Origin: Escherichia coli | GTDB taxonomy: Bacteria; Pseudomonadota; Gammaproteobacteria; Enterobacterales; Enterobacteriaceae | Direction: 5' to 3' (one strand) | DNA: 64,000 nt | Assembly: GCF_017348835.2 (NCBI RefSeq) | Contig: NZ_CP071375.1 | In this document: in pieces, positions 3,309 to 4,723 of the stretch | How positions within the stretch are numbered: position 1 is the stretch's first letter | Layout: each line of letters starts with the position of its first letter | Notes under the pieces: generated by a model | What the model was told of the DNA's origin: nothing | What the model saw: the letters and a program-made list of their open reading frames with translations, nothing else | Databases searched by the model: none | Program-made: the position numbers and the translations under genes

Positions 3309-4723
3309 TCATTCCATTGCCCGATACACGGCCTCGCCAATTTGCTTCAGTGCTTCGCGATAGGTTTCGCTGAGCGGCAAAGCGCAGTTGATGCGCAGAC
3401 AATTACGGTATTTGCCGGAAGCCGAGAAAATCGAGCCTGCCGCCACCTGGATTTTCATGCGGTACAGCTGCCGCGCGACGCAGACCATATCGACCTGTTC
3501 AGGCAATTCGATCCACAGTAAAAATCCGCCTTTCGGGCGCGTAATACAGATTTCGCAGGGAAAATATTCCCGTATCCAGCAGGTATAAAGCGCCAGATTG
3601 CGCTGATAAGTCTGCCGCATCCGCCGGATATGGCGATGATAGTGACCTTCCAGCACAAACGTTGCCGCCGCCATTTGCGTGGACGGCACATTAAAGCTGC
3701 TGATGGCGTATTTCATATGCATCAGTTTATCGTGATAACGCCCCGGTGCGACCCAACCCACGCGCAGGCCTGGAGCAATACTTTTACTGAACGAGCTGCA
3801 CAACAACACTCGCCCGTCGATATCCCATGAATGGATGGTCCGCGGGCGCGGATACTCCGTTGCCAGTTCGCCGTAGACATCATCTTCAAAAATCACAATA
3901 TCATGACGCTGAGCGAGAGAGAGAGAACGGCCCGTTTGCGTGCGTCCGGCATAATAAATCCCAGCGGATTATTACAGTTTGGCACCAGAATGATGCCTTT
4001 AATCGGCCACTGTTCCAGCGCCAGTTCCAGCGCTTCAACGCTGATGCCAGTTTCTGGATCGGTTGGGATTTCAATCACTTTCACGCCCATACCGCGCAGC
4101 ATTTGCATCGAACCGTAATAACAGGGGGATTCGACCGCGACAATATCGCCCGGTTTACACACCGCCATTAACGCCAGCGACATCGAGTTATGGCAGCCGC
4201 TGGTGATAATGATGTCATCGGCGGTGACCACCGAGCCGCTGTCGAGCATCAGGCGGGCAATCTGCTCTCGCAATACCCGCTGACCGGCTAACAAGTCATA
4301 ACCGAGCACGGTTTGTAGATTATGCTGCACCACCCGGCTTAGCTCACGCCAGAGTGGTTTCAGGCTGGGCGTTTCGACATCCGGCGTGCTTTTGCTTAAC
4401 GGAACAATGGAACTGTCGCTATGCGCCTCCAGCATATCCAGCACCTGATCCCACTGGGTAATTTCCACCGGGCGCTGCACCGGACGCGTCATCGGCGGTA
4501 CAGGCGGCTGGGCTTTACGTTGTGCGACAAAATAACCCGAACGCGGCTGCGGAGTGATGAGCTTCATCGTCTCCAGCGTCTGGTACGCCTGCTGCACGGT
4601 GCTGATGCTGACGCCGTGCTCCTGACTTAAGCTGCGCACCGACAGCAATTTCTCCCCGTGACGATACAGCCCTTGCTCAATCCGCTCGGCAAGCAGAGTT
4701 GCCAGATGTTGATAACGCGTCAT
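3309..4723 (-). pseudogene. yjiR: MocR/GntR-type regulator fused to PLP aminotransferase domain (YjiR), frame-disrupted in a (GA)6 tract
   Basis: Two adjacent reverse-strand ORFs (3893..4723 HTH plus aminotransferase N-part; 3309..3896 aminotransferase C-part) in different frames; 1415 nt total = 471 codons + 2 nt. Confidence 0.8.

Follow-up and report, generated by a model that had tools for sequence, protein, structure and literature searches.

A (GA)n frameshift in the regulator gene yjiR of a pig-associated Escherichia coli clone: very probably a slipped-strand pseudogene, inherited clonally

Three kinds of described system lie close to the locus considered here. The first comprises contingency genes governed by simple-sequence repeats (SSRs), e.g., the AG-repeat type III methyltransferase genes of Mycoplasma, Haemophilus and Neisseria, with 12 AG repeats (PMC3498834). 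The second comprises the slipped-strand frameshift pseudogenes at short repeats in enterobacteria, annotated by PGAP as 'frameshifted'. The third is the MocR/GabR subfamily of regulators, e.g., GabR of B. subtilis (4n0b) and PdxR (7pq9), which combine an N-terminal GntR winged helix-turn-helix (wHTH) with a C-terminal fold-type I aminotransferase-like domain carrying an SxSK lysine. YjiR of E. coli has been described as a MocR-family regulator that is uncharacterised and belongs to the accessory genome (PMC9308461, PMC6550539), and deletion of yjiR in EDL933 caused no competitive defect in colonisation of the mouse gut (PMC6550539). The literature on yjiR, on pac homopolymer variation and on dinucleotide slippage in E. 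coli yielded nothing specific to either of the two repeat tracts discussed below.

In the window, i.e., the whole 64,000-nucleotide stretch of E. coli DNA analysed here, yjiR is split by one extra GA unit. The gene resembles the SSR contingency genes in that a dinucleotide repeat within its coding sequence sets the frame and in that its variants are one unit longer or shorter, whereas its tract has only 5–6 units, holds the in-frame length in more than 99% of classifiable genomes and shows no detected reversion, and nonsense mutations have disabled the gene as well. The frequent polymorphism that marks a contingency locus is absent, and the likeness is superficial. From the slipped-strand pseudogenes, in contrast, nothing essential distinguishes yjiR, which shares with them the one-unit indel, the in-frame ancestor, the clonal inheritance, the dispensability and the existing RefSeq flag; what it adds is independent slippage of one and the same tract, in both directions and in many lineages. 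The frameshift itself is already known as a RefSeq pseudogene, and this independent slippage in many E. coli lineages is the sole new detail.

The yjiR pseudogene, encoding a MocR-type GntR regulator with an aminotransferase-like domain, occupies 3309..4723 on the minus strand. Its repeat tract at 3915..3926, GAGAGAGAGAGA, reads (GA)6 on the plus strand, which corresponds to (TC)6 in the coding direction. No second site of this kind exists in the 64 kb, and 100 dinucleotide-preserving shuffles yielded none. The additional 2 bp, which shift the yjiR frame, correspond to exactly one repeat unit within the tandem tract, i.e., (GA)5 to (GA)6. The 5′ ORF (3893..4723, minus strand, stop included) starts with the ATG at 4723, terminates at the stop codon at 3893–3895 and encodes 276 aa ending in ...RKRAVLSLSLSVMIL, of which 269 are native, the last being L269, and the final seven (SLSVMIL) are aberrant. 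The 3′ ORF (3309..3896, minus strand, 195 aa) begins at a GTG, MIFEDDVYGELA..., which overlaps the TGA of the 276-aa ORF (GTGA). No Shine-Dalgarno-like sequence was found upstream of this GTG, where the sequence is CGCTCAGCGTCATGATATT, and for this reason efficient translation of the 195-aa ORF is probably not to be expected, while translational coupling or re-initiation at the GTGA overlap was set aside on the same ground. Removing one GA from the tract gives a single 470-aa ORF, ...RKRAVLSLAQRHDIVIFEDD..., whose product is the intact YjiR of strain F2_81 (WP_089637591.1), since the 2-bp gap is the sole difference between the yjiR genes of the window and of F2_81. In the RefSeq record of strain PE164, yjiR (LZG51_RS20985) is annotated by PGAP as pseudo, 'frameshifted'.

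A sequence-only reading of this DNA had proposed that yjiR encodes a MocR-type regulator split by one extra GA, that the frame from 4723 stops early and is followed by a second frame from 3896, and that deleting one GA would restore a continuous 470-aa protein. Each of these proposals is borne out: the repaired protein contains GntR and Aminotran_1_2 Pfam domains, the ORFs 4723→3893 and 3896→3309 were both found, (GA)6 at 3915–3926 stands against (GA)5 in at least 2394 complete genomes, and the deletion produces a single ORF identical to the F2_81 protein. Comparison with orthologues further established that a single-ORF yjiR is the conserved state and that the two-ORF arrangement is not, and (GA)5 was seen in no independent dataset of the (GA)6 clone.

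The frame break falls at codon 270 of yjiR, and the two domains are not encoded by one uninterrupted ORF. The wHTH (PF00392, GntR; residues 4–66, window 4526..4714, minus strand) is recognised with E values of 5.8e-13 in the repaired protein and 2.6e-13 in the 276-aa ORF, and is thus kept in the truncated product. The aminotransferase-like domain (PF00155, Aminotran_1_2) covers residues 130–461 of the repaired protein (E 9.7e-39); the 276-aa ORF accounts for positions 25–173 and the 195-aa ORF for positions 182–361 of the 361 profile positions, showing that the break, at about 173–182, lies in the middle of this domain. Besides the wHTH and the linker, the 276-aa ORF therefore includes the first ~40% of the aminotransferase-like domain, with the remainder of this domain in the 195-aa ORF. 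The repaired protein matches archaeal and bacterial aminotransferases (1x0m, E 5e-45), and its SFSK motif corresponds in the alignment to TFSK in the homologue 1x0m/3aov, an aminotransferase. The lysine of this motif, K313 in repaired numbering (codon at 3783..3785, minus strand), which we take from general knowledge of fold-type I aminotransferases to be the lysine that forms the Schiff base with PLP, is encoded downstream of the break and is absent from the 276-aa product. What this product retains is the DNA-binding domain; the cofactor site is gone, as is most of the dimerisation/effector domain, from which we infer a loss of function.

Repaired YjiR aligns with GabR 4n0b over residues 10–405 (E 2e-20) and with 7pq9 over residues 4–412 (E 4e-18). 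The likeness to GabR is at the family level only, and the effector and regulon of YjiR are uncharacterised (PMC9308461, PMC6550539). Unlike the members of the MocR/GabR subfamily, yjiR in this genome is split mid-domain, and its product is without the PLP lysine. A further peculiarity of this allele lies within the HTH, where codon 27 (4643..4645, minus strand; GEKLPS segment) is CTG (Leu), and other E. coli YjiR alleles have Pro. The P27L substitution is also present in the intact F2_81 allele and is therefore older than the frameshift, and one may speculate that yjiR was already impaired before the frameshift occurred. An intact gene for an Rpn-family recombination-promoting nuclease (PF04754) lies at 2110–3066 on the plus strand, convergent to yjiR, so that the yjiR frameshift has no downstream gene on which to exert a polarity effect.

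The history of the allele can be followed through close relatives. Over all 64,000 bases, the window is identical to the sequence of E. coli PE164 (pig, Nanjing; NZ_CP114128.1, GCF_021390295.2) except for two 1-base indels, and the PE164 record has the same (GA)6; relative to that record, the window has an extra G in the pac run (G10 versus G9) and lacks a C at 22450. The nearest relative with an intact yjiR is F2_81 (pig, Australia), which over all 64 kb is separated from the window by no more than the GA unit, the pac G-run, a SNP at 7646 and the private indel at 22450. The insertion is therefore very recent and took place within one clone.

At least two sub-lineages of this clone can be distinguished, both of them (GA)6, one with T at 7646 and the other with T at 344, a deletion of 5588–5593 and C at 7646. 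Position 7646 (pac, plus strand) is a T/C SNP that places Trp instead of Arg (TFWANN versus TFRANN in relatives); its T marks the sub-lineage of the window and PE164, and C is found in F2_81, in the fetched loci L006, L008 and L014, and in relatives with an intact yjiR. The deletion at 5588–5593, a 6-bp in-frame loss of GCTATG in the region of the pac signal peptide, occurs together with G→T at 344 in L006 and L008. Tract length does not vary among the sampled members of the (GA)6 clone, roughly twelve in number. Revertants were sought by means of the sub-lineage markers (344, the 5588–5593 deletion and 7646), and none was found in the 3 of 24 contigs inspected. The intact relatives of the L27 type (L035–L037) carry only ancestral flank markers, i.e., 7646 C and pac G9. 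For the three distinct places inspected, the pattern fits one forward event with no sign of reversion.

A wider view of the tract came from a survey of the 3551 complete E. coli genomes with this region present, in which (GA)5 was counted where the flanks had at most one SNP. Under this definition (GA)5 was found in at least 2394 genomes, (GA)6 in two (PE164 and UTME-9), (GA)4 in six (MY203L1 and five 'UID' urine isolates from Bangkok) and (GA)7 in none. Off-length tracts thus number 8 among at least 2402 classifiable complete genomes, and the in-frame length exceeds 99%. The 1149 genomes with two or more flanking SNPs were left out of the tract classes, and an evenly spaced sample of 30 matches showed only spans of (GA)5 length. 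Five units are the ancestral state of the tract.

The second complete genome with (GA)6, UTME-9, was considered as a member of the same lineage and rejected, given its 131 mismatches per 10 kb and 21 SNPs within yjiR relative to the window; its (GA)6 is either an independent event or a recombination patch shorter than 225 bp. UTME-9 (L015, NZ_CP157110.1) also carries, at 2547–3779, a neighbouring mdtM with an internal stop; counting yjiR and pac, both frameshifted there, three genes within 8 kb are pseudogenes. In exact-protein look-ups, 7 contigs encoded the UTME-9-type truncation, at least 21 encoded a (GA)6 truncation on the consensus background, and at least 24 encoded a (GA)4 truncation. 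When all fetched loci are compared over ~1.1 kb of yjiR DNA, variants of plus or minus one unit lie on 15 distinct yjiR haplotypes, which are mostly 10–37 SNPs apart (only 1–5 in three pairs), and two of the 15 have both (GA)4 and (GA)6 derivatives. With variants spread over 15 haplotypes, the tract is thus a genuine slippage hot spot, weak and recurrent, that acts in both directions and whose products stay at low population frequency. The five Bangkok (GA)4 isolates (L016, L018, H102–H106; NZ_CM142664, NZ_CM142669, NZ_CM142670, NZ_CM142671 and NZ_CM142690) come from one project and differ in their genomic surroundings, of which there are at least two kinds, one containing pac and another symE/hsd/brnTA; they may represent related lineages or a project-specific basecalling artefact, and this (GA)4 group may thus be partly technical.

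Taken with the clonal pattern, these data lead us to regard the yjiR allele of the window, with high confidence, as a slipped-strand pseudogene that is clonally inherited and persists because the gene is dispensable. The proposed course is as follows. Replication slippage, i.e., slipped-strand mispairing, would have added one TC/GA unit to (TC)5 at codons 266–270 of yjiR in a recent ancestor of the pig-associated clone, and the +2 frameshift ends translation after 269 native and 7 aberrant residues. The encoded product keeps the wHTH and lacks more than half of the aminotransferase-like effector/dimerisation domain, including K313, so that the regulator would be inactivated. The allele has then been passed on vertically as an ordinary pseudogene, persisting since yjiR is presumably dispensable and its loss nearly neutral.

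The alternative that survives best, improbable as we consider it, is that (GA)n is a contingency locus, i.e., a reversible ON/OFF switch (phase variation) for YjiR, perhaps in concert with the hypervariable G-run of pac at a distance of 3.1 kb. The recurrence of both +1 and −1 variants on the 15 haplotypes, two of which have both, is what such a switch would produce, as is the observation of different tract lengths in isolates only one SNP apart over 64 kb; in the L27 allele family, moreover, the truncated and the intact protein occur on similar numbers of contigs (18 versus 20), and several yjiR-variant genomes also have an out-of-frame pac. However, only the 8 off-length genomes mentioned above were found, with (GA)7 in none; the tract is constant in all sampled members of the clone, and the intact relatives, with their ancestral markers only, give no indication of reversion. 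Five units are also short for a dinucleotide switch. In addition, nonsense mutations inactivate yjiR at least as often as the tract does, which points to decay: stop codons were found at codon 59 (65 contigs), 152 (37 and 31 contigs), 299 (10 contigs) and 304 (3 contigs), and there are further yjiR frameshifts besides the tract variants and stops. The gene itself is patchily distributed, with yjiR matches in 3758 of 5426 complete genomes and absence from about 31%. The rarity of off-length tracts, the stability of the clone, the lack of observed reversion, the unrelated knock-outs, the patchy presence and the absence of a colonisation cost together favour decay of a dispensable gene over switching. 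In its strongest form, the switch model would have the (GA)5 tract toggle at a low rate to (GA)4 or (GA)6 and back, in parallel with the much more mutable G8–G11 run of pac, which we judge improbable; if true, it would make the yjiR–yjiS–pac segment a small, previously unrecognised phase-variable island.

The pac run behaves differently. The break in this gene, a G10 run at window 7055–7064 (plus strand), splits penicillin G acylase, for which the in-frame length is G9, and pac is intact in the PE164 RefSeq record. Among near-identical isolates the run flips between G9 (PE164 RefSeq, L005, L008, L010, L012 and L014) and G10 (the window, L006, L007 and L009), and it does so within each of the two sub-lineages. 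Exact-flank counts among the 1074 complete genomes with pac gave 315 with G9, 213 with G10 and 57 with G8, and UTME-9 has a run of G11. The run is either a real, hypermutable (phase-variation-like) homopolymer or the site of a widespread poly-G consensus error. With nearly half (~46%) of the G-run pac alleles out of frame anyway, co-occurrence with yjiR variants is expected by chance, and the broken pac of several yjiR-variant genomes is explained without a functional link. Such a link between the two frameshifts was rejected, as the pac run is commonly out of frame irrespective of yjiR. The sequence-only reading had placed the two frame breaks within 3 kb of each other and had offered either systematic read error or genuine slippage for both; the breaks are indeed near, at an actual spacing of 3.1 kb, and slippage is borne out for yjiR, but the pac break is not to be lumped with it.

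Less probable still is the possibility that the extra GA arose as an error in the consensus of a low-complexity tract, comparable to the G10 run of pac in the window. Some observations do invite caution. The source assembly of the window is imperfect, as it differs from the PE164 record by two single-base indels. One of these, the C missing at 22450 in the hpaR–hpaG intergenic region (AATTG-AGGG), is present in PE164 RefSeq, F2_81, GCA_026204995.1 and GCA_025641505.1; being private to the window and in a non-repeat context, the deletion is probably a residual consensus error, which would mean that the error rate of this assembly is not zero and that caution on the yjiR tract was reasonable. 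Moreover, no dinucleotide tract in the window is longer than the one that breaks yjiR and no homopolymer longer than the one that breaks pac, and the cluster of (GA)4 calls from one project hints at tract miscalling.

Independent data nevertheless reproduce the allele. An exact-sequence look-up located the exact 276-aa product on no fewer than 19 contigs; about ten independent runs or assemblies are represented, comprising Logan assemblies (ERR3970200, SRR11658258, SRR22895632, SRR17729764, SRR33453118, ERR14374684, ERR7450779, SRR27418558 and SRR17241680) and the NCBI assembly GCA_019365765.1, which is 100% identical to the window over the 9.7 kb compared. All ten fetched loci that encode this product have (GA)6. 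In nine of them, at most 9 aligned positions over 5–10 kb depart from the window, the differences being 0–2 SNPs plus the shared 6-bp deletion and/or a base of the pac G-run, and the tenth (L014) has 6 SNPs in 4.4 kb. Their contig sizes of 16–57 kb suggest that accurate reads lie behind the Logan contigs, and a 12-bp tract would be fully spanned by reads and k-mers and so should not be expandable by assembly. The variant is also lineage-specific though its flanks are not: over the 112 bp around the tract, the other genomes listed, which carry (GA)5, are identical to the window but for the 2-bp gap, and 58 of the 60 matches shown have 98.2% identity each over the 110-bp span, which excludes a systematic error driven by sequence context. 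As the same allele recurs in about ten independent runs or assemblies and in the PE164 RefSeq record, which is free of the two indels of the window, the (GA)6 of yjiR is a real, inherited mutation rather than a sequencing error. Programmed recoding, i.e., a regulated split in which ribosomal frameshifting or transcriptional slippage on the repeat restores full-length YjiR, is scarcely credible and is excluded by the conserved single-ORF state, since the out-of-frame arrangement is rare and derived, a single 470-aa ORF is the rule among orthologues, neither a Shine-Dalgarno sequence nor a slippery heptamer nor a long A/T run is present, and its only hints, neither of them specific, are the GTGA stop/start overlap and the repetitive tract.

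The reading of yjiR as a clonally inherited slipped-strand pseudogene matters mainly for quality control. The frame break in yjiR is trustworthy and should be kept as a pseudogene rather than 'polished away', whereas the same trust is not warranted for the pac break in the same window; one window thus holds two simple-repeat frameshifts of different status, a clonally stable one in yjiR and a hypervariable one in pac. For the biology of the gene, the recurrent knock-outs of yjiR, through slippage in both directions as well as nonsense mutations, add to the published evidence that it is dispensable in many E. coli lineages, and natural isogenic pairs, e.g., F2_81 and PE164, are usable for finding the YjiR regulon.
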